Assembly: GCA_035438985.1 (NCBI GenBank)
Contig: DAORJK010000013.1
Location: 23,416-87,415, forward strand
Length of the DNA: 64,000 nt
Direction: 5' to 3'
Source: Bacteroidia bacterium
Lineage (GTDB): Bacteria; Bacteroidota; Bacteroidia; UBA4408
A program made the translations under genes and the position numbers. The notes beneath the pieces were generated by a model. That model was not told where the DNA came from, did not search any database, and was given only the letters and a program-made list of their open reading frames with translations. Position 1 is the stretch's first letter, and each line of letters begins with the position of its first letter. Of the stretch, positions 3,087 to 24,241 are shown piece after piece.

Positions 3087-3094
3087 TATATTTG
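3087..3094 (+). promoter_or_regulatory. Candidate Bacteroidota -7 promoter box (TAnnTTTG) for the 3142-5248 cassette
   Basis: TATATTTG lies about 48 nt upstream of the ATG at 3142. Confidence 0.35.
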
Positions 3095-3141
3095 CAGTGT
3101 AATTTCTCTAATGAGTTTTTATTAATCCCCTATTTCAAAAC

Positions 3142-3450
3142 ATGCTTCATTCGCATAGTGTAGAAAATGAAAAATTCGGTCTCTTTATTCTGTTTTTAAA
3201 TCACCTTTTAAGTGGCGAAAAGAAATATGAGGAAACCATTAATAATGTTTTGATTGAAACGCGTGCCCTGGTTAAAGGAGAGAAGGATGTATACACAGTC
3301 AATCGAGACACATTTCCAATAATTATTTACTTAAGCAAAAGGAATAAAACTTTTTTTGAAAGCCTGCCGAATACAAAATCTTTTGATAAACAAGTTTATA
3401 CAGATTTGTTTTCACTTCTTGACCGACAACGTCCAATTAGCATAATTTAG
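3142..3450 (+). CDS. Hypothetical protein (102 aa), first gene of the cassette
   Basis: ATG ORF whose stop is 3 nt before the next start (3454). No recognisable motif. Confidence 0.5.
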   Translation: MLHSHSVENEKFGLFILFLNHLLSGEKKYEETINNVLIETRALVKGEKDVYTVNRDTFPIIIYLSKRNKTFFESLPNTKSFDKQVYTDLFSLLDRQRPISII

Positions 3451-3453
3451 TGA

Positions 3454-4650
3454 ATGTCTCCGCGCCTTTTAGAACTTCACTTCTCTCAGTTAGCTAAGGC
3501 CTGGAATAAATCTCAGTATAACAACTACTCTGATAATAATAAAAAGCTTTACCACAATAAACTCGGAGATCTTTACCGGCTTTTAAAAACAGAAGACTTT
3601 TCCAGATTTTCCCAACAAGAAATTATGGAACGGTATGATGTTATTAATATGATTTTCAAAAGCCTGGAGTTTTTGGACAGCAGCACATTAAATCTTCTTC
3701 CCTTCGAAATTGTTACCTGTTTAGATTGTGCTTTAAGAGATTGGCTTCAAGGCGATGAAGAGTTGATTATTGTAACCTCTCTTGTTAACGATATTAATAA
3801 TTACAGCTTTGATGAATCTTTAGCAACGAATGAACAGTTATTTAAGTATGTCGAGCTCCAATATGGAGTAAAATTTGCATCCAGATTAATTCAAATAAAT
3901 CTTCCAGCAACATTATCAAGAGATTATTTGGCCAATGTCGTGCTTTATCATGAACTAGGGCATTTTATTGATACAAAGTACCAAATTTCAAGGGCCATTC
4001 ACGATGAAATTTTAGAGAAGCTTTTCGTAAAAAGAAAAATAACCCCTGAAGAAGAAAAAGAGTTAGCTGACTATTTCCCCTTTCTGGAAAATTACTTAGC
4101 CCTAGAGCCTTACTATAATAATCAAGGCGAAATAAAAGTATTGAGATATTATTTAGCTGAATATTTTTGTGACCTTTTCGCATCTCAATACATAAAAACC
4201 TGTTCGAGCCACTATTTACAATACCTGACTCAAGCATATGCTTCGCAACATAGCAACTCTCACCCATCAACAAAAAAAAGAGTAGAGCTTACAGAAAAAT
4301 TTTTATCCGGAGACGACAGCACGTTTACATTAAGCAAAATTAAGGAGGCAGTTAATAAAACAACAGCAGGTAAGAGTTTGTCAGTAAAGTTTGAAGAAAA
4401 GAAATCTAATGATTTCATCAAGCTTGTTCCTATAGATATTGAAAATGATAGCCAATTGCATTATTTATTTGTTCATGGCTGGGATCTCTGGTTGAATAAC
4501 TGGCACCTATTCGAGGAGCAAAACGAAATGAAATTCAAATTGGATCGAGAAAAGGTTTATGACATTGTAAATAGCTTAATAGAAAAATCTATTGGTAACT
4601 ATGTGGTTAAGACTAATTGGGATAAAGCGAAAGCCAATGTTTCTAAATAA
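3454..4650 (+). CDS. HExxH zincin metallopeptidase-like protein (M48-like/ImmA-like features), cytoplasmic
   Basis: Motifs in order are LYHELGHFID (HExxH), then AEYFCDLFASQY (E..D/A third-ligand-like helix), then SHPSTKKRVEL, which resembles the M48 'HPxxxxR' motif. No signal peptide or TM segments were seen. Confidence 0.65.
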   Translation: MSPRLLELHFSQLAKAWNKSQYNNYSDNNKKLYHNKLGDLYRLLKTEDFSRFSQQEIMERYDVINMIFKSLEFLDSSTLNLLPFEIVTCLDCALRDWLQGDEELIIVTSLVNDINNYSFDESLATNEQLFKYVELQYGVKFASRLIQINLPATLSRDYLANVVLYHELGHFIDTKYQISRAIHDEILEKLFVKRKITPEEEKELADYFPFLENYLALEPYYNNQGEIKVLRYYLAEYFCDLFASQYIKTCSSHYLQYLTQAYASQHSNSHPSTKKRVELTEKFLSGDDSTFTLSKIKEAVNKTTAGKSLSVKFEEKKSNDFIKLVPIDIENDSQLHYLFVHGWDLWLNNWHLFEEQNEMKFKLDREKVYDIVNSLIEKSIGNYVVKTNWDKAKANVSK

Positions 4651-5248
4651 GGGAGAAATAGAAAAACTTCTTAAAGAGGGAGAATTGATTATTAAGCCTC
4701 TCTTAGACACTAGTCAGGTCGGTGAAATATCTATAGATTTTAGGCTTGGTTATGATTTTTTGGTTTCTATTCAAGGCCGGGAGCCTTTTATTGATGCGTC
4801 TCTAAATAATGAAGACAGACATCCTATAAGTAGCTTTTTTCAAGAAACAAGAAGAAATATTGGAGAAACATTCTTACTACATCCTAATCAAACAGTTTTA
4901 ACAAGCAGTTTGGAATTTATAAAAATGCCCAGAGATGTTTTTGCTGTTTTAAATATGCGTAGTTCCTATGTTAGACTGGGGATAACAATTGCGACAATTA
5001 TTCAACCAGGTTATTGCGGTTGTATGTCCCTAGAGCTAACCAATACAAATAAAAATGCTGTAAACATGACGGTCGGTGCACCTATCATTCAGGCAAGATT
5101 GTATAGATTGTCTACGAAATCGAACTACTTCAGCAAACCTAGAAAATATATATGCCAAGTAAGGCCACAAATTTCTGCTGTAAATGACGATGGTGATTTA
5201 AAGATACTCCATCGCATTTGGGAGGAAAGCAATAATAAAATTACCTAG
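4637..5248 (+). CDS. dCTP deaminase / dUTPase-fold (Dcd-like) protein
   Basis: The preferred start is the ATG at 4637 (MFLNKGEIEKLLKEGELIIKP...), which overlaps the upstream stop (4648-4650) by 14 nt. Dcd-like motifs are SIDFRLG, NMRSSYVRLGI and QPGYCGCMSLELTN (compare E. coli DPGWSGCIVLEFYN). Confidence 0.75.
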   Translation: MFLNKGEIEKLLKEGELIIKPLLDTSQVGEISIDFRLGYDFLVSIQGREPFIDASLNNEDRHPISSFFQETRRNIGETFLLHPNQTVLTSSLEFIKMPRDVFAVLNMRSSYVRLGITIATIIQPGYCGCMSLELTNTNKNAVNMTVGAPIIQARLYRLSTKSNYFSKPRKYICQVRPQISAVNDDGDLKILHRIWEESNNKIT

Positions 5249-5266
5249 GGTTTGTTAGGTCACCCC

Positions 5267-6142
5267 TCACTTAAAAACAATTCTTGTTCGAGAATAGTTT
5301 TTCTCCCCAGTCGGCATAATTAATACAAAAGCATTGTATGTATTATAGAAATAATGATACTGAAAAGTAGTGACCCCCTCATGTGTTGCAAGACAACATT
5401 GTCCAATAGTATGAAACTTCTTTTTCTTCAAATAATCTTGGACAAACGTCCATTCAATCCCTAATGTTTTTTGCCAAGTTATTTCCCCGAATTCATTTGT
5501 AAAAGAAGTGGATTGAAAATAATTTCTCACCATACACCCCTCCACAATAAAGTGTTCCGGGTCTTTCAATACTAATAGTGCGCATCGTTTCGAAGAGTAC
5601 TCGACATATCGCCTTATAGCTGCATGTGTTGAAGAACCAAATAATTTTGAAAGGTACATAGGAGATTTTATCTCAAGTGGTAATTTCTGCATCTCCTCAT
5701 CAAATCTATCAAGTTGAAATAATGTAGCCGAGGCAAAATAATTTGCTTCTGCTTCGAATTCATCCTTTGTATCCGGGTCAATCGTACTATCATCATCTTC
5801 CATGTACTCAAACGTTTGACGTTGCCAAGGCAAGGCTTCATGACCAACTTCATGAAGTTGAATAAATTTTTTTCGAACATCTGGTTGATTGGGATCGATA
5901 TAAATTACCTTCTCTCTCCTATCCAAAGCTCCACGCCACTTCCGCAGAGCTCGCTTCAAAACCTCAGAAGTTCGAAGTAAATAATTCTTTGGAATTTTTG
6001 TAATATCAGTTTTCGTATCTACAACCAGTTGAGAATATCGAACAATATTTTCAACTGGTGTTGGAAATATGCCCAATGCCTTGCTTTGTTTCAGGAAATC
6101 CAATGATACAAGCTCTATATCTTTTCGGGAACCTTTTTTCAT
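5267..6142 (-). CDS. ImmA/IrrE-family (DUF955, M78) metallopeptidase
   Basis: Contains the HEVGHEALPW HExxH motif followed by EAEANYFASATL. Its start overlaps the upstream XRE stop in an ATGA (6139-6142). Confidence 0.8.
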   Translation of the reverse strand: MKKGSRKDIELVSLDFLKQSKALGIFPTPVENIVRYSQLVVDTKTDITKIPKNYLLRTSEVLKRALRKWRGALDRREKVIYIDPNQPDVRKKFIQLHEVGHEALPWQRQTFEYMEDDDSTIDPDTKDEFEAEANYFASATLFQLDRFDEEMQKLPLEIKSPMYLSKLFGSSTHAAIRRYVEYSSKRCALLVLKDPEHFIVEGCMVRNYFQSTSFTNEFGEITWQKTLGIEWTFVQDYLKKKKFHTIGQCCLATHEGVTTFQYHYFYNTYNAFVLIMPTGEKNYSRTRIVFK

Positions 6143-6525
6143 TTTTTGTTTTCCGAACGAATAAACTTCAAATAACTTATCAATACTTTTTCTTCTTCCG
6201 CTGAGAGATTTTCAGAGGAGAGAGCATATCCTCCCAATGAATGTGGCGCACTACCCTTACCAACAAAATTTTTAGTTCCATTTTCTACCAGAGGAGAATC
6301 AATGATGCCAGCATCTGTCAATAAGTGACTGAAATTTATTCCATAAAGGTTTGCTAATTTATAAAGAACGTTGGCTGAAGGCTTTTTTATTTTATCGTGC
6401 TCAAGCTGACTTAAATAAGCATTCGATATTTCAGTTACTTCCTCCACCTGTCTTAATGTATAGCCTTTGGTTAACCTGGCGTTTTTGAGCTCTTCGCCTA
6501 TTGTTTTTTTGGTTTTTGAAATCAT
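6139..6525 (-). CDS. XRE-family helix-turn-helix transcriptional regulator
   Basis: The N-terminal IGEELKNARLTKGYTLRQVEEVTEISNAYLSQLEHDK... is a typical HTH_3 domain. It is the first gene of the XRE-ImmA pair. Confidence 0.85.
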   Translation of the reverse strand: MISKTKKTIGEELKNARLTKGYTLRQVEEVTEISNAYLSQLEHDKIKKPSANVLYKLANLYGINFSHLLTDAGIIDSPLVENGTKNFVGKGSAPHSLGGYALSSENLSAEEEKVLISYLKFIRSENKK

Positions 6526-6554
6526 TTTTAGGCTGTGTTAATGAGAAATCGCTA

Positions 6555-6562
6555 CAAATATA
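6555..6562 (-). promoter_or_regulatory. Candidate -7 box (TATATTTG on the minus strand) for the XRE-ImmA operon
   Basis: Plus-strand CAAATATA reads TATATTTG on the minus strand, about 30 nt upstream of the XRE ATG (6525). Confidence 0.3.
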
Positions 6563-6591
6563 AAATAAAAATGCTCAAAATCACAAGCTTA

Positions 6592-6618
6592 GCTAAATTT
6601 TTGCTAAATTAATTTAGC
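6592..6618. promoter_or_regulatory. Candidate operator: GCTAAATT half-sites including a perfect 16-bp palindrome
   Basis: GCTAAATTAATTTAGC (6603-6618) is a perfect palindrome. An extra direct half-site GCTAAATT lies at 6592-6599. The site is in the divergent intergenic region between XRE and the Ubl operon. Confidence 0.45.
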
Positions 6619-6625
6619 GGCTCTA

Positions 6626-6633
6626 TAATTTTG
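6626..6633 (+). promoter_or_regulatory. Candidate -7 box (TAATTTTG) for the Ubl-E2-JAB-E1 operon
   Basis: Matches TAnnTTTG. It lies immediately downstream of the palindrome and about 73 nt upstream of the ATG at 6706. Confidence 0.35.
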
Positions 6634-6705
6634 CTTGATATATTTAAAATTGCTTCGTATCTTTGGCAAAAATTAATTATTAAACAATCTAAAAAAAACA
6701 AAAAA

Positions 6706-7203
6706 ATGAAAACAATTCAAATTTATTTACATGGTGAAGAAGCCCGTGAAACAAAGCTTGTAGAAGTTTCTACCGATGCAACTATCGCAGATATTATCAA
6801 TAAGTATCGCGAAGAAACAAACATGCAGGGGGCAAAGTTAGAAGAGATAGATCTCTATTTTGAGGATGAAGAACATCCTAAAGAAAAGGGGCATCACATT
6901 GAGCACGCTGGAATAAAAAAACGACACCATGTTCACTGCCATAGATGTCAAAAGGTAGCAATATCAATTGAATATAATGGTCAGGTTAAGAACATTAGTG
7001 TGCCACCTTCAGCAACCGGTGTTATGATTTTAAAAAAGTCTGCAAAGGAGTTTGGAATCACCGAAAAAGATGCATCTGACTTATTACTTAAATTACCTAA
7101 CGAAGAAGTTCTACAGAAGACAGACCATATTGGGTCATTTGTATCATTTCCACACTGCGAAATAAAACTTTTATTAATTCACAATAAACAGATACAAGGA
7201 TGA
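6706..7203 (+). CDS. bilA: Ubiquitin-like protein, apparently tandem beta-grasp (ISG15-like), ending in a free C-terminal Gly (BilA-like)
   Basis: The ATG at 6706 (MKTIQIYLHG...) is preferred over the TTG at 6631. There are two halves of about 80 aa, each starting with a beta-strand-like K.IQIYL / KVAISIEY. The protein ends ...NKQIQG-stop, and the stop overlaps the next ATG (ATGA at 7200-7203). The symbol is assigned from operon architecture only. Confidence 0.65.
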   Translation: MKTIQIYLHGEEARETKLVEVSTDATIADIINKYREETNMQGAKLEEIDLYFEDEEHPKEKGHHIEHAGIKKRHHVHCHRCQKVAISIEYNGQVKNISVPPSATGVMILKKSAKEFGITEKDASDLLLKLPNEEVLQKTDHIGSFVSFPHCEIKLLLIHNKQIQG

Positions 7204-7676
7204 GACCAGATTTGCAGATTTTTAATAAGCATATTGAAGATGCCGAATTTCAAATCGGGCTGGATAATGGCATGTGGGGGATTTCGGATGATAATCCGGA
7301 GCGCCCCACTTGGCCATATATTACTATATGGGTACAAGCAGCTGCCAAACTGAATGCCCCTAATAAATATCATTTCAGGTTCGACTTAAATGGCTATTCA
7401 GCAATTGCTCCAACAGCCTGTCCTTGGGATGTAAGTGCCAATAAGCGGTTACCAGACAATCTCTGGCCCTGCGGAAAGAACTTTGTATCCTCTGTTTTTA
7501 GACCTAGTTGGAATCCCAATGCGCTTTATGCTCCCTGTGATCGCTTGGCAATGGCAGGGCATGGAGATTGGCAAACAAGACACCCTGAATTGTGGTGGCA
7601 GCCAACATTTAAAATTGATAAATACTTGCACTATCTACACAGGCTTTTAAATTCTTCAGACTATGTTGACTCATAA
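7200..7676 (+). CDS. bilB: E2-like (UBC-fold) ubiquitin-conjugating enzyme homolog (BilB-like)
   Basis: 158 aa, sandwiched between the Ubl and JAB genes with coupled overlaps. WNPNALYAPC resembles the UBC HPN...C active-site context. The assignment rests mainly on position. Confidence 0.6.
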   Translation: MRPDLQIFNKHIEDAEFQIGLDNGMWGISDDNPERPTWPYITIWVQAAAKLNAPNKYHFRFDLNGYSAIAPTACPWDVSANKRLPDNLWPCGKNFVSSVFRPSWNPNALYAPCDRLAMAGHGDWQTRHPELWWQPTFKIDKYLHYLHRLLNSSDYVDS

Positions 7677-8148
7677 ATTAGAAATATCAGAAACACTTTG
7701 GGTTAAATTAGTTGGACAACTGAGAATCCGAGGTAAGGGAAAACGCGAAACAGGAGCCTTTTTACTTGGCCCTTTAGAAAAACCTACCATTACAAAATTC
7801 ATTTGTTATGATGAACTTGACCCTCATGCATTTGACTCTGGGATAATTGTTTTTAGTGGAGACGGATATATCCCATTATGGAAATATTGTCGTGAAAACA
7901 ATCTTCGGGTTTGGGCTGACGTTCATACCCATCCAGGAACTTGGACAGGCCAAAGTAAGGCAGATAAAGAGCACCCCATGATATCTCAAAAAGGTCACAT
8001 AGCCTTCATTGTTCCGAATTTTGCAAAAAACAAAAAGCAGAAATTCACAGGAGTTGGGATATATGAATACTTAGGCGACCATAAATGGAAAATATGGACC
8101 AGTAACTCTAGTATTATTAAGCTAATTGTAGAAAAAAATGAAAGATGA
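7663..8148 (+). CDS. bilC: JAB/JAMM (MPN+) metalloprotease, deubiquitinase-like (BilC-like)
   Basis: Exact JAMM motif: the upstream Glu in KRETGAFLLG, then HTHPGTWTGQSKAD, which is H-x-H-x7-S-x2-D. The start overlaps the E2 gene by 14 nt. Confidence 0.85.
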   Translation: MLTHKLEISETLWVKLVGQLRIRGKGKRETGAFLLGPLEKPTITKFICYDELDPHAFDSGIIVFSGDGYIPLWKYCRENNLRVWADVHTHPGTWTGQSKADKEHPMISQKGHIAFIVPNFAKNKKQKFTGVGIYEYLGDHKWKIWTSNSSIIKLIVEKNER

Positions 8149-9511
8149 AATCACAGAAAATAACTTTAATCGCTTAGCCATTTGCATAATGACAAAACAT
8201 CGTTGTTCTTACGATGAAGCAATGGATAAGTTATGCGAACTAAAGTTAAATATAGTATGTGGAAGTGCGATAGGAAATTCTATTCCCTTACAAGCAGCAC
8301 TATTAACCGCTGTCAATACAGGGAAGCGTGCATTTTTAGGGGGCATATTTATTACAATCCCTGAGGATGTCAACACTTTGATCCCTTGGCCAAATAGCAC
8401 CTACTTAAATGACATAATAGTTGAACTAGGGGGACAAATAGTACAGAAACCTGTAGACGGAGTTTTTTCTCTAAAATTAGGTCTTTCAGCAAGTATTGAA
8501 GAAAACTCTTTAGAGGTTATTTGTAATAGTTGGCAAGGAGGCTTTTCAAACGGTGATAGTGATATTCGTTTGTTAGAAAGTAATAATATTCCTCTGGGAG
8601 GTATTGCTGCAGGAGCGCTGGGGGTTGGAACAGCTTTTCTTAGATTAACCAACATACAAGTTTCTGCAGGAGATGTATCAACAGGAATTTCTCTCTGGCG
8701 ACCGGACTTAGGCTGGCTTGATTATGAAGCAAATGGACCGGAGGTAATATTCCTACCGGAAAAATTTTGGTTACTTGGTTTAGGGCACTTAGGTCAAGCA
8801 TACTTATGGAACATAGCTTTTCTTCCTTATCCAGACTCTTCACAGATATCAATTCTTCTGCAGGACTATGATAAGATGTCGGTGGCCAATTTAAGTGCCG
8901 GACTAATCTGTGAAGAGGAAAATGATAAACAATTCAAGACTCGAATATGCAGCAATTGGCTCGAAGAGAGGGGTTTTAAAACCATTATATCAGAAAGAAA
9001 ATTTGATGAATCAACTAAATGTAATAGTAGTGAGCCATTAATTGCTTTATGTGGGTTTGATTCAGCCGTTTCGAGATTACATCTGGAAGATGCAGGGTTT
9101 GATTTGATTGTAGAAGCAGCTCTTGGTGGAAATTTATCATTGTTTGATAATATTATTTTACACACTTTCCCTAATGCACGTAAATCTCCAAAAGTAATTT
9201 GGGGAAATCTAAATTTTACTGACCAAGAGATTAATTCTGTTGTACTTGAAAAATTCTCGCATCTGAAAGAAAATGAATGTGGGATTATTGCTCAAACTCT
9301 TGCTAGTAAAGCAATTTCTACAGCTTTCGTAGGAGCGTTAGCAGGAGCGCTTGCAATTGCTGAATTATTGAGGGCATTAAACGGAGGCAAGAGATATGAT
9401 TTGATTGTCGCTCAAATGCGATCTTTGCAATATAAGAATGCCTCAATTCATAAAAATGAATCCTATAGTTCTGAAATGGCAAGAAACGGATTTGTTTCTA
9501 GTAAATGTTAA
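8138..9511 (+). CDS. bilD: E1-like ThiF/MoeB-family adenylating enzyme (BilD-like)
   Basis: Rossmann loop LLGLGHLGQAY followed by ILLQDYDKMSVANLSAG (compare the E1 'D.D.V..SNL.RQ' motif). 457 aa with an N-terminal extra domain. The start overlaps the JAB gene by 11 nt. Confidence 0.8.
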   Translation: MKDEITENNFNRLAICIMTKHRCSYDEAMDKLCELKLNIVCGSAIGNSIPLQAALLTAVNTGKRAFLGGIFITIPEDVNTLIPWPNSTYLNDIIVELGGQIVQKPVDGVFSLKLGLSASIEENSLEVICNSWQGGFSNGDSDIRLLESNNIPLGGIAAGALGVGTAFLRLTNIQVSAGDVSTGISLWRPDLGWLDYEANGPEVIFLPEKFWLLGLGHLGQAYLWNIAFLPYPDSSQISILLQDYDKMSVANLSAGLICEEENDKQFKTRICSNWLEERGFKTIISERKFDESTKCNSSEPLIALCGFDSAVSRLHLEDAGFDLIVEAALGGNLSLFDNIILHTFPNARKSPKVIWGNLNFTDQEINSVVLEKFSHLKENECGIIAQTLASKAISTAFVGALAGALAIAELLRALNGGKRYDLIVAQMRSLQYKNASIHKNESYSSEMARNGFVSSKC

Positions 9512-9571
9512 CCATTTTATTTTCCAGAAATTAATTATTTTTCGAAACAGTCTATTTAAAAGTTAAAAAAT

Positions 9572-10315
9572 ATGAAACGTAAAGCTATAGTAATTGGTGC
9601 TCCTGGAGGGGTTAAAAATGAATATTTAGAAGGTGTTCAATACGATTTCAAGAATTACATAAACTTCTTAAAATCACCAACGGGTGGTGCATGGGATTCG
9701 AGTGAAATTATCCCAGTAATGAATCCGAGCTCAATAAAGCTAAAGAACTACTTAAAAAACTTAAAGGTGGATTACACATTGGTGATATTTTCAGGTCATG
9801 GGGCCTATCAAATTGGTGATAGTACATATATTGCAGTGAACAGGACCGATTTAATTTCAGTCAATGAGCTAGTTACAAAATCGCCAAAACAATTGCTTAT
9901 CATAGATGCCTGTAGAAGTTTCATCGATAGTGGTATTTCTGGATTCTTAGAAGAGGAAGCTAAAAAATTTCCCTCAAAACTAAGCAGGATTGAGGGAAAA
10001 AGAATTTTTAAGTATCAGCTAGATAAATGTGAAAATGGACTGGTCGTTTGTTTTTCATCTATAATTGGTCAAAGTTCATACAGTAAAAATGACGGTGGTT
10101 TGTTTTCACTTAGCTTATTAGATACTGCCAAATCATGGGTTTTAACGCCTAGCAGGTTTGGTATATTGCCGATACAAACAGCCTTTACAAGAGCGAAAAA
10201 TTATACAATTCAAAAAACAAGAGGTATACAAGTGCCTGAACTTAAGGCATCCAATATTAAAAAAAGAACTACATGGTTTCCATTTGCCATAAGAAAACCT
10301 ATACAATCAGTTTAA
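9572..10315 (+). CDS. Caspase-like cysteine protease (peptidase C14 fold), stand-alone 247 aa
   Basis: N-terminal strand KAIVIGAPGG. The His-Cys dyad sits in canonical contexts: VIFSGHGAYQ (H76) and LLIIDACRSF (C114). It lies 60 nt downstream of the E1 stop on the same strand, with no obvious terminator between. Confidence 0.8.
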   Translation: MKRKAIVIGAPGGVKNEYLEGVQYDFKNYINFLKSPTGGAWDSSEIIPVMNPSSIKLKNYLKNLKVDYTLVIFSGHGAYQIGDSTYIAVNRTDLISVNELVTKSPKQLLIIDACRSFIDSGISGFLEEEAKKFPSKLSRIEGKRIFKYQLDKCENGLVVCFSSIIGQSSYSKNDGGLFSLSLLDTAKSWVLTPSRFGILPIQTAFTRAKNYTIQKTRGIQVPELKASNIKKRTTWFPFAIRKPIQSV

Positions 10316-10844
10316 CAGTTTGAACATTTCTGCTTCAAAAAAACTCAGCTGGATGTCTTAATATATAATGGTTCAAGAAAAATTCACAACTCGCTAATCT
10401 TGTTTTTGAATTAGAGTAGATTCTGATACTTGAATGATAAAACTCTATTTGCTTAAGGTCAGTTCACTCATTCCGCTACGCGCTTCATTCTTTTCACTCA
10501 CCGCAAGCAACGCACACAAGAGAAACAAAATATAAATTACCACTGTCCGCGTTAATTCAAGTTTCCCTTTTTGATTTGACAGTACGAATTTATATTTCGT
10601 TACACTTGCTTTTCCCCCCTCATAAGGTATTCTTTGTTTGACAAAAAACACAACCGCTTCAAAAGTTGAAAATTCCTTGCACTTACAACCCTTTGTTCGT
10701 AAAGGTTATAGTAAATTTCGAAAAAACAATTTTCCTGTTTTGCCATTCAAGTAAAAAATCTTTTCCCGAAAACCTTGACAAACATCCAAAGAAATTTTGA
10801 TTGGGTTTTTACACGGTTGAGCTTTTTCGGTTTGCCATTTGAAA

Positions 10845-11711
10845 CTATTTTGCTTTCATGATTAACGATTCCAAAAATTCGGAATTAGATTTAATTGAAC
10901 GTTCAACTTTCTTCAATAAATTTTTTCTGTAATCTTTATTCTTATCTAGAGAAGAGTAATCAACCAAGTTTTTACTGTAGAATTTTAAATCTTTTTTGAA
11001 GCTCGCCATGCTTGATTTCTTAGTGACAAATTTCTCAATTGCAAAAGCAACAAGTTCTTGAGTAAATGGAATAGAAACAACTTGATATTCCGCTAACCCT
11101 TGCAGTAAATTAAATTCTTTCCATTTATTTGACTCATCAAGAGCCTGAATTCTATTTCCTGTTTTTTTCAAGTGAATGTCGACAATTCGATAGCTGTTTT
11201 TTTCCTGTGTTTTCTTTCCCTCATTACTTTTCCCCCAAACAGTATAATCAACAGTATGAGCACCCGCGACCTTCCTTAAATCATAAATATCCAATTTTTG
11301 TATTTTTGAGTATTGTTGTTCGGTTGAGGGAAATTTAAGGAGCTCTCCAATCCCTTTTAGGGCAGAGCTTTGCAAGTAGATAGCGTTTAAAATACCATAT
11401 AGCCTTAAATATTTTTCACCCCAACTTTCATTCTTCGACAAGTCTCCCAATTGATACTCGAATGCATTAACGATGGCACTTTCGGTTGTTATGGTTAAAT
11501 CAACGCAGGCCTGAAATCTTTTGGATTCCTCAATATTATTAAAACCCATTCTCTCAGAGTACGCTTTCCAAAAGTTATCTTGGTGAGGAATATTCTGAGA
11601 AACATGATAGATTATGGCCGAAAGTAAATCGGCAATATCACCTTTGTCGTATTTCTCATTTTTACCAACGTTAATCATGCTGCTTTTTTTGAAGACAAAG
11701 CTATATAGCAT
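10845..11711 (-). CDS. Hypothetical protein (288 aa; alternative start M12 at 11678)
   Basis: Long ORF convergent with the caspase gene. No motif recognised. Confidence 0.5.
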   Translation of the reverse strand: MLYSFVFKKSSMINVGKNEKYDKGDIADLLSAIIYHVSQNIPHQDNFWKAYSERMGFNNIEESKRFQACVDLTITTESAIVNAFEYQLGDLSKNESWGEKYLRLYGILNAIYLQSSALKGIGELLKFPSTEQQYSKIQKLDIYDLRKVAGAHTVDYTVWGKSNEGKKTQEKNSYRIVDIHLKKTGNRIQALDESNKWKEFNLLQGLAEYQVVSIPFTQELVAFAIEKFVTKKSSMASFKKDLKFYSKNLVDYSSLDKNKDYRKNLLKKVERSIKSNSEFLESLIMKAK

Positions 11712-11826
11712 TCAACCGTTAATAGGATGATTATCCGACTATTTTTCAACATGATGGGTAATTGACATCAGTCCACCTACTGCTTAGCTAAGAATCTGCC
11801 TGCATAGCAAGAATCAAGACCCTTGT

Positions 11827-11880
11827 TGTCTTTGTCTTCATCAAGAATTTTTCGAACCCCAAAAATCACAGACAAAGACA
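11827..11880 (+). other. Hairpin (11-bp stem) followed by T-run
   Basis: TGTCTTTGTCT (11827-11837) pairs with AGACAAAGACA (11870-11880), followed by CGCTTTTTT. Confidence 0.4.
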
Positions 11881-12031
11881 CGCTTTTTTACAATTAAAGT
11901 ATATTTTTTATCGACTAAAATTGCAGGTGTGGGTAAAATGAAATATATTGCACAAATATTTTACGAGTTGACCAAACGACTTCAATGGGATATAATTCAA
12001 TAAATAGATAACTAAAAATTAAAAAATACAT

Positions 12032-13147
12032 ATGAGAAAATTTCACAAAATTAGTCTTGCCCTGGCTACAGTTTCAGTAATTATTTTCTTTGTTGGATGC
12101 AAGAAAGATGGCATAGAAACATCAAACAATGAATCACAAAACAATAGCAGTTTCGATGATCAAACATGGAGGTCTTACCCCCTTGATACAACTCCGGGAT
12201 TTGCTGCTGATGATGCATCTCGGATTTTGTCATACCCAGCTACCTCGTATGTTTCTGTTCCAAATAACAATGTTTTTCAAGCCTCTCCCGCTAGTTCAGT
12301 TGCCTATGGAGGTGTTACTTATTATGGCGGCCCATTTCAAGCAAGTACTTATTCGGTAAGCGGAAATATAATTACGTTTCAAATGAAACGCACAGATGGG
12401 TTTACTTTCCCTGTTGGCTCTGTTTTGAAAATTAAACTTACTAATGCAGGAGGAACAGTAATGAATACAATTACTTTAACAGCAGCAGCTTCAAGTTATA
12501 ACTTGCATGCTATTGAATCAAACACCTGGAATCTAAGTGGTGGTAGTTCAAGCAATCCCAACAATACCAGTAGTTATGTATTAACTTGGTACAATCCTTC
12601 TAGTGGCTTAACATTTTATACTTTACCTATAAAAATTGTTGCTGTTCCAACAGGTTGGGGTACTAATCTATCAAGTTTTGGTGTCCCCATTTATTCAAAT
12701 GGCTGGGGTGGCTTCTTATCTACCAATAACCTTAAAGATGTTTCCTACAATAACTCTCAGATGTATCAATGTGTACATTATATTCAGAAATACTATCTTG
12801 CTATAAAGTCTAAAAATATTGGCAATGCTAATGCTGGTGACTATTGGAATTCAAACACCTCTCACAGCCTTACTCAAAAAGTATTAAACGGGAATGGTGT
12901 TCCACAACAAGGAGATATTGTTTGCTTTTACAACACTAACTCTGGTTCCTATCATGTGGGAATTGCAGGTGGGGTTAATGTTTCTGGCTTTTTAAGAGTG
13001 TTTCAGGAAAACGTTGGGCAAACCCTTGTTAATGGTAATTATTGCTCTGGATATAAGGACATGGCTTATGCAAATAATGGAAGTGGTTACAACGTTTCAG
13101 CAGCAACACTTGGTAGCAATTGGGTGACACTTGGTTGGGTGAGGTAA
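12032..13147 (+). CDS. Lipoprotein with C-terminal CHAP (cysteine/histidine amidohydrolase-peptidase) domain
   Basis: Lipobox ...IIFFVGC. The C-terminal part has MYQCVHYIQKYY (catalytic Cys context) and GSYHVGIAGG (His context), as in CHAP domains. Confidence 0.65.
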   Translation: MRKFHKISLALATVSVIIFFVGCKKDGIETSNNESQNNSSFDDQTWRSYPLDTTPGFAADDASRILSYPATSYVSVPNNNVFQASPASSVAYGGVTYYGGPFQASTYSVSGNIITFQMKRTDGFTFPVGSVLKIKLTNAGGTVMNTITLTAAASSYNLHAIESNTWNLSGGSSSNPNNTSSYVLTWYNPSSGLTFYTLPIKIVAVPTGWGTNLSSFGVPIYSNGWGGFLSTNNLKDVSYNNSQMYQCVHYIQKYYLAIKSKNIGNANAGDYWNSNTSHSLTQKVLNGNGVPQQGDIVCFYNTNSGSYHVGIAGGVNVSGFLRVFQENVGQTLVNGNYCSGYKDMAYANNGSGYNVSAATLGSNWVTLGWVR

Positions 13148-13215
13148 GATAGTTGCTCTATAGAATGCTTGGCTGAAAATCAGGTACTAGTGATGTAAAA
13201 TTAAAATCAATAGAT

Positions 13216-14025
13216 ATGAATAGAAATAAACTAATTTTCTTGGTTGCAATTTTATCTGCTTGCCAAGGAAGACCAACAAGTTCAGTGACTGAACAAGAAC
13301 CCCAAGCGGATACAGTTAGTACGGCAAAAGCAAAAATTCAGTCTATCTCTAAGCTTAACGAACAGAGCGATAGCATTTCTCTATTCACAGCTCCTAATGG
13401 TAAACAATACAAAGTTATTCAGCTCCCTGCCGAATCTAGTCTTGATACCTCTACTGGCTTTACAGAACTTGCTGCACAGCTTGATTGTGAAACGGATGAC
13501 TACCACGGGAAGGATAGAAAAGCCTCAAAATTATCCATCGTAAATGCCTCAACTGAAGCGTTTAATAGTTTGAACTCTTTTATTGAAACCCTAAAGGATG
13601 ATAACTCAATGATAAATAATTCTCAAATAAGTCGTGACGAGAATAATAAAAGGGTTAAAGATGAAAAAAGAAATATAAAGCTTAGCAACATTTTTATTTA
13701 CGCAATGAAAAGAGAGCCCGATAATGATTACCACATAATTATTGGGGATGAAAATGGACTATATTTTAACATTGAAAACTCTGGCCTTCCAGATGAAAAC
13801 CAAGGAGATTTTAATAGACTTGCAAAAGCAAGAAAGGAAGTTGAGGATTATTTTGGTGAGGCTTGCAATTCAAATTATCAAAAGTTTGACCCACCAATTC
13901 CTGTTGAAATTGAAGGTTCAATTTTTTATGACATAGATCATCGACCGGGGGCTGTTGGGCCAGAGGGGTTCAAGCCTAAAACCTCTTGGGAAATTCACCC
14001 AATTACAAAAATTGTTTTCAAATAA
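13216..14025 (+). CDS. Lipoprotein, unknown function
   Basis: Signal/lipobox MNRNKLIFLVAILSAC. No catalytic motif recognised. Confidence 0.55.
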   Translation: MNRNKLIFLVAILSACQGRPTSSVTEQEPQADTVSTAKAKIQSISKLNEQSDSISLFTAPNGKQYKVIQLPAESSLDTSTGFTELAAQLDCETDDYHGKDRKASKLSIVNASTEAFNSLNSFIETLKDDNSMINNSQISRDENNKRVKDEKRNIKLSNIFIYAMKREPDNDYHIIIGDENGLYFNIENSGLPDENQGDFNRLAKARKEVEDYFGEACNSNYQKFDPPIPVEIEGSIFYDIDHRPGAVGPEGFKPKTSWEIHPITKIVFK

Positions 14026-14079
14026 TAGCAGGATCGGTAAACTGCAAAACAGCCAAGGTTAAGCGTGAATGTCTGCATA

Positions 14080-14153
14080 GCAAGATTGCGTATGGACGGT
14101 CTACTTTGTATGCCGCCCATACGCAATCTTGCGGGGAACACATTTCCCCGTAC
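14080..14153. terminator. Two consecutive hairpins between convergent genes
   Basis: GCAAGATTGCGTATGG (14080-14095) pairs perfectly with CCATACGCAATCTTGC (14117-14132). A second hairpin GGGGAA...TTCCCC follows. The pair sits between 13216..14025(+) and 14180..15838(-). Confidence 0.5.
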
Positions 14154-14179
14154 CCCTTTAAACGTAAAAAATATTAATT

Positions 14180-15838
14180 CTATTTAATTATTATTTTCAT
14201 TGATTCAAAACAATCAGATGTTTTAAATCTAGCGGTATAAAAACCAACTGGCAAATTTTTATCAATGAAAACTTTATGGGTTCTAGATGTCAAAAGATTC
14301 AAATCAACACGAAATACGACAGAACCAATATTGTTATATAAATCCAACACCCCCATTGTAGACTCATTTCCAAAATATGAGATATTAATTTCAAAAACAC
14401 CATCATTTGGATTTGGGAACGCCTTCATTAGTAACTTGTTCGGTTGGTATGTTAGGTTCTCATCATTCGTTTCTTTTTGAACACTAAATTCTTTGAAAAA
14501 AGGTAATTCAATCTGTGTAAGAGTCTGGCGAATTTGATTTATCATCACTGTCTCGTTACTTGCAGAACGATTTGCAGAACATTGTTCTATAGTCCCTGAA
14601 AAGGTAGCCCCAAGCTCAATTTCTAAATAAGATGTTGTGCTATTGGGTCCGTATGTAATGTGATTTCCTGCCTTAAATTCATAATCAGCCCCATCGTGAA
14701 TTGTAATTTTTGATATTACATCAATTCCTTCTTCTGCTTGAAGAATTACCTTATTCTCCGATTGGTAATGGCTCGCAGGGAAATATTCTCCAGATACACC
14801 AGATACACCAGGAAGTTGTAAGTTTTGATAGCAACTTATTTTCCTGCCTCCTAATCCAAGCAAATCTATTGTTAGGTCATTATTAGGGTTTAATTTATTT
14901 CTTACACCCTGGCGAAAATAACTGCTTTTAAAAGGTCCATAAAAATCCATCATACTAAAGCTACATCCAGATAAACCACCTGAAAGGACACCAACAATCT
15001 TATCATTAGAATTAAACATTACCGCCCCTGATGATCCAGATTGGGTAGAACCATAACACCATTGTGGTACAGTATACCATGGTATGTCAACGTAGTTACA
15101 AATTACTTGAGTTGAAAAACTCTGATTCCAAATCCATCCAAAAAGAATATCTATTATTGTAGTGATTGTATAACATCCTGTTGAAAGTGAAGAATAGTTT
15201 TTCAAAATCCTCTGTGTGCCACTGATTTTTTTAATATCCCCTTCTGGATGATGCACTGTTGTATATAAATTCGGTAATGTACCACAATTTGGCGTATTTC
15301 CAATACTAACACCATTTAACAATAAACTTGAATTCCAGCCAGCATAGTTATAGTTAAAATGGGGGGGTAAGGGAGTTACTATTTCACATAAAGCAAAATC
15401 ACCCCATGAATAATCCTCAATTAAATTGAGTTTGGAAATGTGCTTGTATTCATAACCATTAGGAAGTATATTACTTGACTGACTATTAGCTAACCCTTGA
15501 TTGGTAGAATGAGTAGAACTAGAGTTAGCATCAGGACTTTGGTAATTAAAATACAAAGTGAAATCATTACTAAAGTCAACATCCTTTACACAATGATGAG
15601 CAGTAATAAAGTAAAAACCTACATCGCCATCATTTGTGTTTCTGTTTATTAGAGTTCCTGTACACAATCCATCGATACTTAGTTTGAATACGCTATTTAT
15701 CATATTACTGTTAGGAGCAACCTGATATTGGGGATCATTTACATTTTTTTGGCACGCACCCGCGTCCCCAAATTCTTGTGCTAATAAAGACTTTACCAAA
15801 ATCAATTGAAACAACATAAATCGTCTTACTTTTTTCAT
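14180..15838 (-). CDS. Trypsin-like (S1) serine protease with T9SS C-terminal sorting domain
   Basis: Signal peptide present. ITAHHC supplies the catalytic His, and SGSSGAVMF is the GDSGGP-like Ser motif. The C-terminal ...AFPNPNDGVFEI...KIIIK is a T9SS CTD. Confidence 0.8.
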   Translation of the reverse strand: MKKVRRFMLFQLILVKSLLAQEFGDAGACQKNVNDPQYQVAPNSNMINSVFKLSIDGLCTGTLINRNTNDGDVGFYFITAHHCVKDVDFSNDFTLYFNYQSPDANSSSTHSTNQGLANSQSSNILPNGYEYKHISKLNLIEDYSWGDFALCEIVTPLPPHFNYNYAGWNSSLLLNGVSIGNTPNCGTLPNLYTTVHHPEGDIKKISGTQRILKNYSSLSTGCYTITTIIDILFGWIWNQSFSTQVICNYVDIPWYTVPQWCYGSTQSGSSGAVMFNSNDKIVGVLSGGLSGCSFSMMDFYGPFKSSYFRQGVRNKLNPNNDLTIDLLGLGGRKISCYQNLQLPGVSGVSGEYFPASHYQSENKVILQAEEGIDVISKITIHDGADYEFKAGNHITYGPNSTTSYLEIELGATFSGTIEQCSANRSASNETVMINQIRQTLTQIELPFFKEFSVQKETNDENLTYQPNKLLMKAFPNPNDGVFEINISYFGNESTMGVLDLYNNIGSVVFRVDLNLLTSRTHKVFIDKNLPVGFYTARFKTSDCFESMKIIIK

Positions 15839-20469: not shown

Positions 20470-21468
20470 CTACCTTACCAAACTTTCTTTCGTTTTCACA
20501 TTTCTGGTTCGTGTCTTGGTTAACTCGTCCTTTTTTTTTGTAATTTCTTCAACTTTAGGTATTGAGGTAACAAAAACATTTTTGATTTCTTTTTCAATCG
20601 TTCTTTCATTTAAAATATAATCCACAGCCTTTTGCGCTTGCCCACTAGCATGAACAATAAATTTCTTGTCTTTCTTTAATTTTTCAAGCCAGTGTTGTAT
20701 GTATGCAATGTTATCCTCAAAGTTTTGATGTGGTATTCCAGTATAAGATTTAAGATATGATGCGCCCATTTCAGCGGTAAGTTCTTCAATAGCATAATCC
20801 CTTGTTTGTGGGCCTTTTTGTTCAAGTAATTCCTTTCTGTTAAGCCTTTCACTGTGTCCGGTTGCGTGAACCAATTCATGGAAAAGTGTTCCGTAATATC
20901 TTTCAATACTAACAAAAGAATCAAGCTTTGGCATATTCACATAGTCTTCTCCTGTGTGGTAAAACGCTCTTTGTTCATTGTGCTGAATGATTGGTTTCTT
21001 CGGCATTTCATTGATAACTTTTTCACACGCTTCAATTGGATTGTTCTGTCTTTCTTCCTTAACTGGTAATTTTTCTTTTGGTATTCCTGTGCATTGATCA
21101 ATATTAAAAACTGTATAGTACTTGAGTAATGGAGTTTTCTTAACCTCTTTTGTTTTTTCATCTTCCTTTTCAAGCCACTTCCAAAAAACCACTAGTTGTG
21201 ACTTTTCTCCTTTCTTTACAGAGCCTCCCAATTCTTTAATTTGATTGAAAGTCAGGAAATAGTTTTGGGAATAATTCAATGAATTTAATAGCCAAACGTT
21301 GATTCCTTTGTAAGGCTTCTTAGAAACTAAATTTCTTGGTAATCCTGAATCTGTCCATGGTTGTTGCCATGGAACAATTTTCTTTTCAAGTTTTTCTATG
21401 ATGTGATTGGTAACTATTTGATATATATCTTTAGTTGTGTTTGGTTGATTTTGTTGAGTATTAGTCAT
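20470..21468 (-). CDS. ardC: ArdC-like antirestriction protein (N-terminal ssDNA-binding DUF1738 plus C-terminal zincin)
   Basis: N-terminal ...VPWQQPW...PYKGINVWLL... and C-terminal HELVHATGH HExxH motif. Confidence 0.75.
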   Translation of the reverse strand: MTNTQQNQPNTTKDIYQIVTNHIIEKLEKKIVPWQQPWTDSGLPRNLVSKKPYKGINVWLLNSLNYSQNYFLTFNQIKELGGSVKKGEKSQLVVFWKWLEKEDEKTKEVKKTPLLKYYTVFNIDQCTGIPKEKLPVKEERQNNPIEACEKVINEMPKKPIIQHNEQRAFYHTGEDYVNMPKLDSFVSIERYYGTLFHELVHATGHSERLNRKELLEQKGPQTRDYAIEELTAEMGASYLKSYTGIPHQNFEDNIAYIQHWLEKLKKDKKFIVHASGQAQKAVDYILNERTIEKEIKNVFVTSIPKVEEITKKKDELTKTRTRNVKTKESLVR

Positions 21469-21479
21469 AATTTTAAATA

Positions 21480-22325
21480 TTAACGATTAATGTTTCGCAC
21501 TCTGTCTTTAGAGTTGCCTCTTAATTCCCTTAATTCCTTTTGCTTGTTGTGTATGATGTTTAGCATTTCAATTCTGTCCTCTGTAAACCCAATTCGGTTG
21601 AATCGAAATTTGTTTCTTCCAAAGATTATTCCTGTTGTTTTTCCTCCTCTGTCGTAGGTTTTCAGACCGCATTCATTTAGTAATTGATAAAAAGTATCTC
21701 TTGAATTCGCTTTCTTGTAGCAAGTTTTGAGCATTCCAATTACTTGCTCCTTTTCTGTATCTCTTCCAGTTCTTAACTTGTAGTTATATTCCCTATCGCT
21801 AGCTTTTCCCCTTTCTCTTTTACCATGCGCAACAATTGATTTTGATAATTCCGGAAAATGTTCAATCTGATAATTCTGAATTTCTTTCTTAAGTTTTCCA
21901 AAATCTGATTTGGACATTCGCATTGCTTTTCCTGCTCTGTATTCGACACCGGAAGCGCAGATATGAATGTGGTAATGTTCTTTGTCGAAGTGTGGAACTG
22001 CAATATACATTCCTTTGGGATTTCTTTTCTGAATGTATTCCCTTGCCATTTCCTGCATCTTGTCTAAGGAAATGTTCTTTGCATCATCTCTGTGCCAAGA
22101 GAGTATCTCATGGGTGAGAATTACAGAATCCTTTCTTTTTCGTAAACGATGTGTTTCATTTTCTTTAAACTGGTTCACCCATTTTTCAATATCATCTCCT
22201 TTTAAATTGTGTGTCAGAACAAAGCTTTTATCCTTTTCATCAAATAGTCGAGCATTGTCATGGAGCATATACTCCAGTAGTTTCTTAAAGCTTGGTCGCT
22301 TAAAGGATTTTACTTTGACAATCAT
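21480..22325 (-). CDS. Relaxase / mobilization nuclease (MobA/VirD2-type)
   Basis: The N-terminal ...FKKLLEYMLHD is a catalytic Tyr region, and PHFDKEHYHIHI is the His triad (H.D...H.H). The ATG at 22325 is preferred over the ORF-track start at 22334. Confidence 0.8.
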   Translation of the reverse strand: MIVKVKSFKRPSFKKLLEYMLHDNARLFDEKDKSFVLTHNLKGDDIEKWVNQFKENETHRLRKRKDSVILTHEILSWHRDDAKNISLDKMQEMAREYIQKRNPKGMYIAVPHFDKEHYHIHICASGVEYRAGKAMRMSKSDFGKLKKEIQNYQIEHFPELSKSIVAHGKRERGKASDREYNYKLRTGRDTEKEQVIGMLKTCYKKANSRDTFYQLLNECGLKTYDRGGKTTGIIFGRNKFRFNRIGFTEDRIEMLNIIHNKQKELRELRGNSKDRVRNINR

Positions 22326-22803
22326 TTTGAGCAAGTGGTGGGTTTCTAAAAACCTGATTTAATTTTTCTTCTAATCGAATAATTATTTTCTCAATGCTCT
22401 CAAACTTCTGATCTCGCTCCCAATGATATTTCTCCCTCGTTTTTACAATGCTCTGAATCTGATTTAAACATTCTGAAAGGATTTGCTCTAAATGCACAAT
22501 TTGTTCTGAATTTGGAACGATATAGCTTTGGTTGAGGTAAGACATTACAGCGGAGCGAATAAAGGCGGTAATTGTCATTTTATGCCTATTCGCTGCATGC
22601 TCAACTTTACTGTATTCACCATTCTCATTTGAGAAGTTGACCGTAAACTCCGGTTTATGATTGCGCTGATTCTGCTTGTATTTCAAAAGGTACTCCTTGC
22701 GGTAAGCAAGTTTTGCTGCCTTTATTTCCGCATCAGTTCCCTTTTCAAGAACTCCCGTTGCTTCTAAATATTCCCACAGTCCGTTATTGTTCCTTTTGCT
22801 CAT
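22300..22803 (-). CDS. MobC-like relaxosome accessory protein
   Basis: EFTVNFSNENGEYSKVEHAANRHKMTITAFIRSAVMSYL is an RHH-like segment, followed by LEQILSECLNQIQSIV (compare the MobC 'NLNQIAR' motif). It overlaps both neighbouring genes. Confidence 0.6.
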   Translation of the reverse strand: MSKRNNNGLWEYLEATGVLEKGTDAEIKAAKLAYRKEYLLKYKQNQRNHKPEFTVNFSNENGEYSKVEHAANRHKMTITAFIRSAVMSYLNQSYIVPNSEQIVHLEQILSECLNQIQSIVKTREKYHWERDQKFESIEKIIIRLEEKLNQVFRNPPLAQNDCQSKIL

Positions 22804-24241
22804 TTGCTTTTTGCTTTAGGGGTAAAACGGGAATGCTTTCAGTTGCTAGTTGGCCGATAATCTCTGGTGCTTCGATGTTGCTGTAGTCTTTAAATTTCGA
22901 TTGTCGGTAGTAAGGTTTAAGTCTCGCCAATATGGGTTGATGATGTCCACAAATTAGAATTGCTTGAGTATCTTTCATGGTTCTGATTTCATCATTTGTC
23001 ATGAGTGGTCGAACTACAGTTCTTTCCTTTTCATCTTTGTATTCATACCTTCCTAATGTTTGTTCCAATTCCTTTGCTGTTTCTAAGGATGTTCCGGTGA
23101 AATACATTTTTGCAAAACAGTTGGATTTAATTGCATCTGCATTGTTTTTTCCATAGTGATTTACCAGTTGATTAAAATCTTGTACCAAGAGCATGATTCC
23201 TGAGCGGTGCTTTCTGACATTGGCAACTGCTAATGATAGCGTTGGAAGGTAGAGTGATGATGCTTCATCAATTAGCAAGAAAATATCCTTCTCACTCTCT
23301 GAGGGAAAGCGTGAAAGAAGGAAAGCAAAGAATTGTTCGAAGAAAAGTGAGGTTAATACAGAGTAATATTTTTGGTCTGCTACCGAATTTTGTATGAACA
23401 ATGCTGTTGGTTTGTTTCTAAACTCAATTAGGTCAAGATTGTCTGTTGATGTAACTTTTGCAATAGATTCATCATTGAAAAGTTGAAGCGCAGCTTTGCA
23501 AGTGGCAATGACTCCACTTACAACTTTGTCATCATAAGCGATAAAGGATTTGTATTCTGCAAACAGAATTTCATCTGCATGTTCTGAAAACAAGGCATCT
23601 ACTGATTCTGGATTCCCTCCTAATCTGTTTAAGAGTTGCCTTACATTGTAAAGATTCTGAAATTCTGGTGCTTGCTTTTTTAGGATAGTGATAAGCATGG
23701 CAAGCAATGATGTTGCCTGAGAATTCCAAAATGGATCTTTGCTTTTTCCTCCTAATGCATTTTCAATTAAGAGAGAAGCAACCTTCTGAATATCCGATGA
23801 GCTTTGCGCTCTGACAAGTGGATTGTAACCCGAAGAATTATTCGGATTAGAAAAGTTCAGTACTTTGATTTCATGGCCTTTCTGCTTTAAATATCCTGCA
23901 CTTTTTGAAAAAAGCTCACCCGAAGGATCGTGAATGACAAAACTTCCCTTCATTGTGTATAGTGATGGAAAGAGCACCACGCTTGATTTTCCAGTACCAG
24001 TTCCTCCAATTATGAGTGAATTCTGATACGAATTTTTAACTGATAAATTTCTTCTTCCTGTGAGACAGAAGCCATATTCTCTGCTTGATAGCAGAGTTCT
24101 AGCACTTACAAATTCCGCATTGTAGCTATCCTTCTTTTTAGGAATAGCAGTCCAAGCGAATTGTATAAACTCGAAGATTCCTTTGAAAATACTTTCTAGA
24201 AGTTTTATGAAGAGTATGAGGAGTTGTTCTATGATTTTCAT
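22784..24241 (-). CDS. Type IV secretion coupling protein (TraG/VirD4-like)
   Basis: Walker A IIGGTGTGKSS, Walker B FLLIDEAS, and an N-terminal hydrophobic segment. Confidence 0.85.
   Translation of the reverse strand: MKIIEQLLILFIKLLESIFKGIFEFIQFAWTAIPKKKDSYNAEFVSARTLLSSREYGFCLTGRRNLSVKNSYQNSLIIGGTGTGKSSVVLFPSLYTMKGSFVIHDPSGELFSKSAGYLKQKGHEIKVLNFSNPNNSSGYNPLVRAQSSSDIQKVASLLIENALGGKSKDPFWNSQATSLLAMLITILKKQAPEFQNLYNVRQLLNRLGGNPESVDALFSEHADEILFAEYKSFIAYDDKVVSGVIATCKAALQLFNDESIAKVTSTDNLDLIEFRNKPTALFIQNSVADQKYYSVLTSLFFEQFFAFLLSRFPSESEKDIFLLIDEASSLYLPTLSLAVANVRKHRSGIMLLVQDFNQLVNHYGKNNADAIKSNCFAKMYFTGTSLETAKELEQTLGRYEYKDEKERTVVRPLMTNDEIRTMKDTQAILICGHHQPILARLKPYYRQSKFKDYSNIEAPEIIGQLATESIPVLPLKQKANEQKEQ

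Follow-up and report, generated by a model that had tools for sequence, protein, structure and literature searches.

A mobile three-gene cassette, with a predicted zinc protease and a Dcd-fold dCTP-deaminase-like protein, recurs beside bacterial ubiquitin-like operons

What is a dCTP-deaminase-like gene doing as the last member of a tightly packed trio, behind a predicted zinc protease and a small, variable protein? The question is raised by one end of a 64,000-nucleotide stretch of DNA (the window, by which we mean the whole stretch) from Bacteroidia bacterium (Bacteroidota, lineage UBA4408; assembly GCA_035438985.1, contig DAORJK010000013.1, positions 23,416 to 87,415 of the forward strand). 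The answer we favour, with the considerations for and against it about evenly balanced, is that the three genes, here called A, B and C, make up a conflict module in which a protease gates the deamination of dCTP, and which often operates beside ubiquitin-like protein (Ubl) pathways. The trio and the candidate control element ahead of it are laid out as follows:

3087-3094, + strand: possible Bacteroidota -7 promoter box TATATTTG, 48 nt 5' of gene A; weak evidence
3142-3450, + strand: gene A, 102 aa; fast-evolving small protein without a known family
3454-4650, + strand: gene B, 398 aa; predicted cytoplasmic, divergent M48-like zinc metallopeptidase
4637-5248, + strand: gene C, 203 aa; Dcd-fold, dCTP-deaminase-like protein

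The first step is to ask whether these genes belong together. One genome per species was scanned, 185,579 in all, and tblastn confirmed 102 stretches. In about 74 of the 79 loci retained from these, C follows B; A stands upstream of B in 64, and complete trios number 55. Carriers amount to some 80 species genomes, mostly Bacteroidota with some Proteobacteria, and a full trio also occurs on a prophage-like IMG/VR contig. Recurrence on this scale makes the trio, which the initial annotation had called a cassette, a conserved unit rather than a chance arrangement. The open reading frame (ORF) coordinates likewise agree with the tight packing described there, a 3-nt gap between A and B followed by a 14-nt overlap between B and C; gene C itself stands as an ORF, its length corrected from 204 to 203 aa, the stop codon having been counted in. 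The partnership that the initial annotation proposed between protease and deaminase is strongly backed by natural B-C fusion proteins, which form at least 23 distinct clusters with linkers of 25-35 residues; where separate, the two genes overlap or almost touch. An AlphaFold2 model of one fusion (P0121) reaches a mean predicted local distance difference test (pLDDT) of 92 and a predicted template modelling score (pTM) of 0.91 over its 632 residues, the latter implying, as far as a model can, a fixed arrangement of B relative to C.

The second step concerns the enzyme at the end of the trio. Gene C carries the motifs SIDFRLG, RSSYVRLG and PGYCGCMSLELTN, and the Dcd/dUTPase fold first read from them is borne out by a match to the Pfam family DCD (PF22769; 7.7e-28, 98 bits against a cut-off of 27), by a score of 118.2 bits against the NCBIfam dCTP deaminase model TIGR02274 (cut-off 92.8), and by the C domain of the homologous fusion P0121, which matches the Dcd and DCD-DUT structures 4xjc, 1xs1 and 2qxx with TM-scores of 0.82-0.88 (E 1e-12 to 1e-11). 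Pfam finds Dcd-family domains alone in gene C, and the 64-kb window holds no second Dcd-like ORF. Aligned with Escherichia coli Dcd, gene C keeps RSSxxRLG and LE(L/F)xN, and has IQPG in place of IDPG at the position of E. coli D128. The Asp-to-Gln change noticed at the outset is thus present in the alignment (Q123) and proves to be a hallmark of the family, with Gln in 93% of 76 members; three residues are missing from the loop that aligns with residues 121-126 of the E. coli enzyme. Residues R108, S109, R113 and E133 (E. coli R110, S111, R115 and E138) are 99-100% conserved in the same 76 members (S109 and R113 100%, E133 99%), as is the C-terminal Y...RKY motif, the Tyr/Lys-Tyr lid motif. 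Because it scores above the TIGR02274 cut-off, because its catalytic residues are so nearly invariant and because the fold matches Dcd and DCD-DUT enzymes, gene C is likely to encode an active enzyme, judging from its sequence and that of its relatives.

Gene B is further from anything familiar. The zincin motifs attributed to it, HELGH (residues 166-170), EYFCDLFA (236-243) and SHPSTKKR (269-276), are present, and none of the residues H166, E167, H170, E236, D240, H270 and R276, from HExxH, ExxxD and HPxxxxR, varies among 40 homologues. The protein itself has no match in Pfam (including Peptidase_M48 at E <= 1), NCBIfam or PADLOC; among the 40 homologues, 20 match Pfam Peptidase_M48 (PF01435, best E 7.9e-5), and homologue P0150 passes the gathering score of that family (27.5 against 20.3 bits). 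An AlphaFold2 model of gene B has a pLDDT of 93 and a pTM of 0.91. A Foldseek search with this model against the PDB and BFVD returned nothing below E 0.01, and a profile search of PDB sequences gave no match; the weak fold matches in the PDB include 3c37, BepA (6sar, 6ait) and the M56 protease BlaR1 (8ext), at E 1-5 and a TM-score of about 0.2. Membrane segments are unlikely in A, B or C, and the lack of one in gene B, part of the original reading, accords with a highest 19-residue Kyte-Doolittle mean of 1.17. The family is small: 1.84 billion proteins include only 371 of its representatives at 50% identity. From its motifs and those of its homologues, gene B is likely to be a soluble, very divergent M48-like zinc protease.

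Gene A offers least to hold on to: Pfam, NCBIfam, PADLOC and PHROG searches give no match, and Pfam detects no helix-turn-helix (HTH). Of the three it evolves fastest, its mean pairwise identity being 25% where B reaches 40% and C 54%, and its proteobacterial counterpart, a 110-aa gene upstream of B, is weakly homologous (hhalign E 1.7e-4). As for the TATATTTG box ahead of gene A, it does lie at 3087 as annotated, but it was rejected as promoter evidence in its own right: the pattern TAnnTTTG is found 80 times in this AT-rich window against 93.5 expected by chance. That it is a promoter is only plausible.

The third step is to look at the company that the trio keeps. All neighbours of the 79 loci were clustered, and the families found in at least seven loci, after A, B and C themselves, are:

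BubE: 15 loci
JAB-E1: 13 loci
Tyrosine integrase: 11 loci
CapH: 11 loci
CapP: 10 loci
ThiF-type E1: 9 loci
Multi_ubiq: 8 loci
E2: 7 loci

For comparison, type I restriction-modification genes lie near the trio in about five loci. A Ubl operon occurs within 10 kb in 23 of the 79 loci, and in 19 of the 49 whose flanks extend 6 kb or more in each direction. The gap from the trio to the nearest Ubl or regulator gene has a median of 133 nt and is below 350 nt in 18 of the 23; nine junctions fall between -44 and 30 nt. Bil operons, Bub operons of types I and II and further operons with an E1 gene are joined in this way, in several orientations, and the loci concerned fall into at least 12 clades of the gene B tree. 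Homology stops where the composite cassette stops, both between L017 and L054 (87% identity over A to BubE) and among L032, L034 and L037 (67-69% over BubE to C), as it does for the window copy described next. Where it is joined to a Ubl operon, the trio travels with it as one cassette, so that it probably acts in the same response.

In the window the neighbour is a Bil operon with its regulators, and the features that follow gene C are:

5267-6142, - strand: capP-like M78 metallopeptidase (PADLOC capP 1.6e-20; Pfam Peptidase_M78 4e-11), 18 nt from gene C and convergent with it
6139-6525, - strand: capH-like XRE-family repressor (PADLOC capH 9e-10; Pfam HTH_19 8e-13)
6603-6618: palindrome GCTAAATTAATTTAGC, perfect, 16 bp, between capH and bilA; candidate CapH operator
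6631-7203, + strand: bilA, ubiquitin-like protein (PADLOC BilA 2.5e-38)
7200-7676, + strand: bilB, E2-like (PADLOC BilB 1.9e-51)
7663-8148, + strand: bilC, JAB peptidase (PADLOC BilC 3.3e-57)
8138-9511, + strand: bilD, E1-like (PADLOC BilD 1.5e-132)
9572-10315, + strand: caspase-like Peptidase_C14 gene (Pfam 5.4e-11), last of the conserved block; 97.6% identical in L086
2975-10315: composite block of 7.3 kb (trio, capP/capH, bilABCD and the caspase-like gene), 93% identical in nucleotides to positions 4839-12178 of metagenome contig L086

The order bilA-bilB-bilC-bilD (Ubl, E2, JAB, E1) makes a complete Bil system at 6631-9511, although the true start of bilA is probably near 6706, since the PADLOC match begins at residue 26. 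The capH and capP genes (5267-6525, - strand) are divergent from bilA, a layout already described (bioRxiv 10.1101/2023.09.26.559546). What had been taken for an ImmA-XRE pair in a defence or mobile island is, by its PADLOC matches, the CapP/CapH regulator of the BilABCD operon, and a specific, repeated junction with Ubl operons takes the place of the generic island. No terminator-like site was found in the 18-nt gap between gene C and capP. The 7.3-kb block has unrelated flanks on both sides in the window and in L086, and no convincing repeats around it; it is one unit, inherited or moved as such. A reverse survey of Bil operons in metagenomes found one close relative alone, L086. The GCTAAATTAATTTAGC palindrome, present as a single copy in the window with three mismatches allowed, is a likely CapH operator. 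An operator common to the trio promoter and the capH-bilA region was considered and rejected, there being no common word above 8 nt and no second copy of the 16-bp palindrome. The caspase-like gene directly 3' of bilD was not seen beside other trio loci outside the block shared with L086.

The window copy also lies in a mobile setting, an element that carries an insertion sequence (IS), ArdC, a relaxase and a type IV coupling protein. Positions 1-26200, at the left of the window, resemble a mobilisable element, and a strong hairpin at 2815-2842 closes the IS unit upstream of the trio. Its recognisable parts are:

80-496: DUF2130 fragment
1145-2680: DDE transposase
20470-21468: ArdC-like antirestriction protein
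21480-22334: relaxase
22784-24241: type IV coupling protein

Just past the conserved block lies a 288-aa ORF (10845-11711, - strand) that has no Pfam or PHROG match. A tyrosine integrase is found near the trio in the 11 loci counted above.

Several individual loci merit description. At L055 (7064-9306) a DUF1508/YegP-like gene occupies the Ubl position ahead of an E1 gene directly upstream of the trio, the E1 gene standing immediately 5' of A on the same strand; YegP-like genes after capK-capS have been noted independently in the CapK/CapS paper (PMC13373217). At L041 a CapH-like HTH gene (9224-9568) lies directly 5' of A-B-C in a locus with no CapP gene, which raises the question of whether B might substitute for CapP. 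In L071, L074 and L076 (about 9650-14400) an A-B pair lacking the deaminase gene and the BubE gene of a type I Bub-like operon meet tail-to-tail, and a gene for an ECF-type (extracytoplasmic function) sigma factor and a small unknown gene follow beyond the Ubl gene. In a Hymenobacteraceae clade (L007, L018, L066) a gene of about 793 aa precedes A directly on the same strand; it is probably the large subunit of ribonucleotide reductase (RNR), because two genes of about 795 aa stand at that position among the scanned neighbours and Pfam gave two RNR hits. L082, from a Burkholderiales metagenome-assembled genome, has a canonical two-domain DCD (6694-8019; PF06559 and PF22569) about 2 kb upstream of its trio, and that genome therefore holds two Dcd-fold genes.

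How, then, does the trio compare with systems that are already known? A PADLOC search at E <= 1 matches none of the three proteins, and in the literature searched we found no description of the trio, nor any link of a Dcd/M48 cassette to Bil, Bub or CapHP; the impression that this is not a described architecture was well founded. Deamination of dCTP is a proven anti-phage strategy, and the defensive dCTP deaminase of Tal et al. is a single 576-aa protein with an N-terminal kinase-like and a C-terminal zinc-dependent cytidine-deaminase domain, above 350 aa by definition (bioRxiv 10.1101/2021.04.26.441389). The trio resembles that protein and AvcD/DcdV in its proposed output, deamination of deoxycytidine nucleotides that starves the phage, and in being sporadic and mobile. 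It differs in the fold of its enzyme, the unrelated Dcd/dUTPase one, and in the protease and small protein that accompany gene C; gene C falls outside the Tal-type definition, with its Dcd-family Pfam domains alone and no PADLOC match, and AvcD is additionally under RNA antitoxin control. To our knowledge, all characterised bacterial defences that deaminate deoxycytidine compounds use the zinc cytidine-deaminase fold. With housekeeping Dcd (TIGR02274) and DCD-DUT, on the other hand, gene C shares the fold, an above-cut-off score, the catalytic Ser, Arg and Glu and the C-terminal lid, whereas it is only about 27-29% identical, has Gln for Asp, a shortened loop and an extra conserved C-terminal helix, and is always coupled or fused to a zincin in a rare and mobile unit.

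For gene B the closest known proteins are the M48 proteases HtpX, Ste24 and BepA and the related M56 sensor protease BlaR1, with which it shares HExxH, ExxxD about 70 residues on and then HPxxxxR, the Pfam M48 hits among its homologues being borderline; it departs from them in being soluble, with large private N- and C-terminal helical regions and no significant match to solved structures. A zincin with a small partner also recalls the CapP/CapH and ImmA/IrrE switches, making a cleavage-based switch plausible in a cassette that a genuine CapP/CapH pair adjoins, although B is not of the M78 family, A has no detectable HTH, and the output of the trio would be an enzyme rather than transcription. 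Type II CBASS, an anti-phage signalling system based on cyclic oligonucleotides, provides a precedent, in the ubiquitin-like machinery Cap2/Cap3, for E1, E2 and JAB genes attached to and regulating a separate effector (bioRxiv 10.1101/2024.11.21.623953); it differs from the present case in that no CD-NTase is found here and that the neighbouring Bil and Bub operons are complete with a Ubl of their own.

Putting these strands together, we infer that the trio would be a mobile conflict or stress module in which B, the predicted soluble M48-like zinc protease, and C, the Dcd-fold dCTP deaminase, act as one physical complex. Gene A would be the subunit that provides regulation or specificity, most likely by inhibiting B or by being cleaved as its substrate, or else by acting as a sensor. 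A trigger such as phage or DNA damage may lead to proteolysis by B that switches the complex, whereupon C would convert dCTP to dUTP, starving DNA replication of dCTP and flooding the pool with dUTP. The trio is joined, in roughly 40% of the loci with at least 6 kb of flank on each side, the window copy among them, to a Bil or a type I or II Bub operon, usually with CapH/CapP. As a tentative extension, possible rather than probable, the A-B(-C) cassette could be a functional partner of the Bil/Bub pathways, either because Ubl placed on or removed from A, B or C controls the deaminase or because B is a Ubl-directed metalloprotease.

It must be set against the proposal of a protease-gated conflict module that several findings pull the other way. 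About 60% of the loci have no Ubl operon within 10 kb. The genes adjacent to stand-alone trios are mostly ordinary, with few PADLOC matches among 138 neighbours, so that generic defence-island enrichment is weak for these copies and was set aside as a candidate explanation. The deaminase is not always the output, for A and B occur without C in three loci (L071, L074, L076), and the predicted catalysis may be affected by the shortened loop and by Gln in place of Asp. The window has no GCTAAATTAATTTAGC copy upstream of gene A. The RNR adjacency in the Hymenobacteraceae clade could point to nucleotide metabolism. Finally, Bub operons have shown no phage protection so far (bioRxiv 10.1101/2024.11.21.623953; PMC13373217).

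The chief competing explanation is that the trio is not autonomous but an accessory arm of the Bil/Bub pathway, in which Ubl on A, B or C switches the complex, or B processes, deconjugates or degrades in a Ubl-directed manner with the deaminase as an interchangeable output. Such an arrangement would account for the Ubl operon that abuts the trio in 19 of the 49 well-flanked loci (in nine cases the gap measures -44 to 30 nt), for the variety of operon types and orientations, for the co-inheritance of composite blocks, for the A-B pairs without C that lie against BubE, and for the loci in which an E1 gene (L055) or capH without capP (L041) directly precedes A. It sits poorly with the majority of loci (about 60%) that lack a Ubl operon within 10 kb and with the fact that none of the three proteins was seen fused to a domain of the Ubl pathway. 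Moreover, the Bil defence system that has been studied reportedly consists of Ubl, E1, E2 and deubiquitinase alone, with no such cassette (bioRxiv 10.1101/2023.09.04.556158). On balance we regard this explanation as doubtful, though deserving of more weight than those that follow.

An addiction or toxin-antitoxin-like cassette, with C toxic because it unbalances the pool, A and B as its neutralisers, and the whole stabilising mobile elements with no dedicated antiviral role, would suit a trio that is carried by integrative elements, by a prophage and by an element that can be mobilised, whose first gene is small and fast-evolving and whose packing is tight. It leaves the specific and repeated junction with Ubl operons unexplained, and many copies lie in apparently chromosomal contexts without mobility genes; we consider it improbable.

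Even less probable, in our view, is that the trio is a specialised nucleotide-metabolism unit, a regulated alternative dcd rather than a conflict system. Gene C does exceed the NCBIfam dCTP deaminase equivalog cut-off, public records annotate proteins of its type plainly as 'dCTP deaminase', and three related loci place the trio directly downstream of the probable RNR large-subunit gene. However, those three loci represent one event, since their neighbour gene families are common to them and they are each other's closest relatives in the clustering of gene B. A housekeeping role is unlikely because the trio is rare (sporadic in about 100 of 185,579 species genomes), mobile and prophage-borne, and co-occurs in L082 with a canonical DCD; nor do we know of an obligatory protease partner for housekeeping Dcd.

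Least probable of all is that C is catalytically altered and acts on another or a modified nucleotide, or serves protease B as a nucleotide-binding sensor instead of a pool-depleting deaminase: the Gln found in 93% of the family, the loop deletion and the A-B pairs without C speak for it, and against it stand the conserved deaminase Ser, Arg and Glu, the conserved C-terminal lid, and a fold that superposes well on active Dcd enzymes.

If the reading of the trio as a protease-gated, dCTP-deaminating conflict module is true, it would be the first defence to recruit the Dcd/dUTPase fold and the first to be gated by a dedicated metalloprotease, nucleotide-pool attack itself being an established antiviral strategy. 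For the Bub operons, whose role and targets are an open question and for which their discoverers have so far reported no protection against phage (bioRxiv 10.1101/2024.11.21.623953; PMC13373217), the trio is a concrete candidate partner, with dCTP and dUTP pools as the read-out, and should it prove to be a functional partner it would provide them with a first candidate effector and a testable output. For the Bacteroidota in which it is mostly found, the plain 'dCTP deaminase' labels that its last gene carries in public records may mislead metabolic reconstructions.

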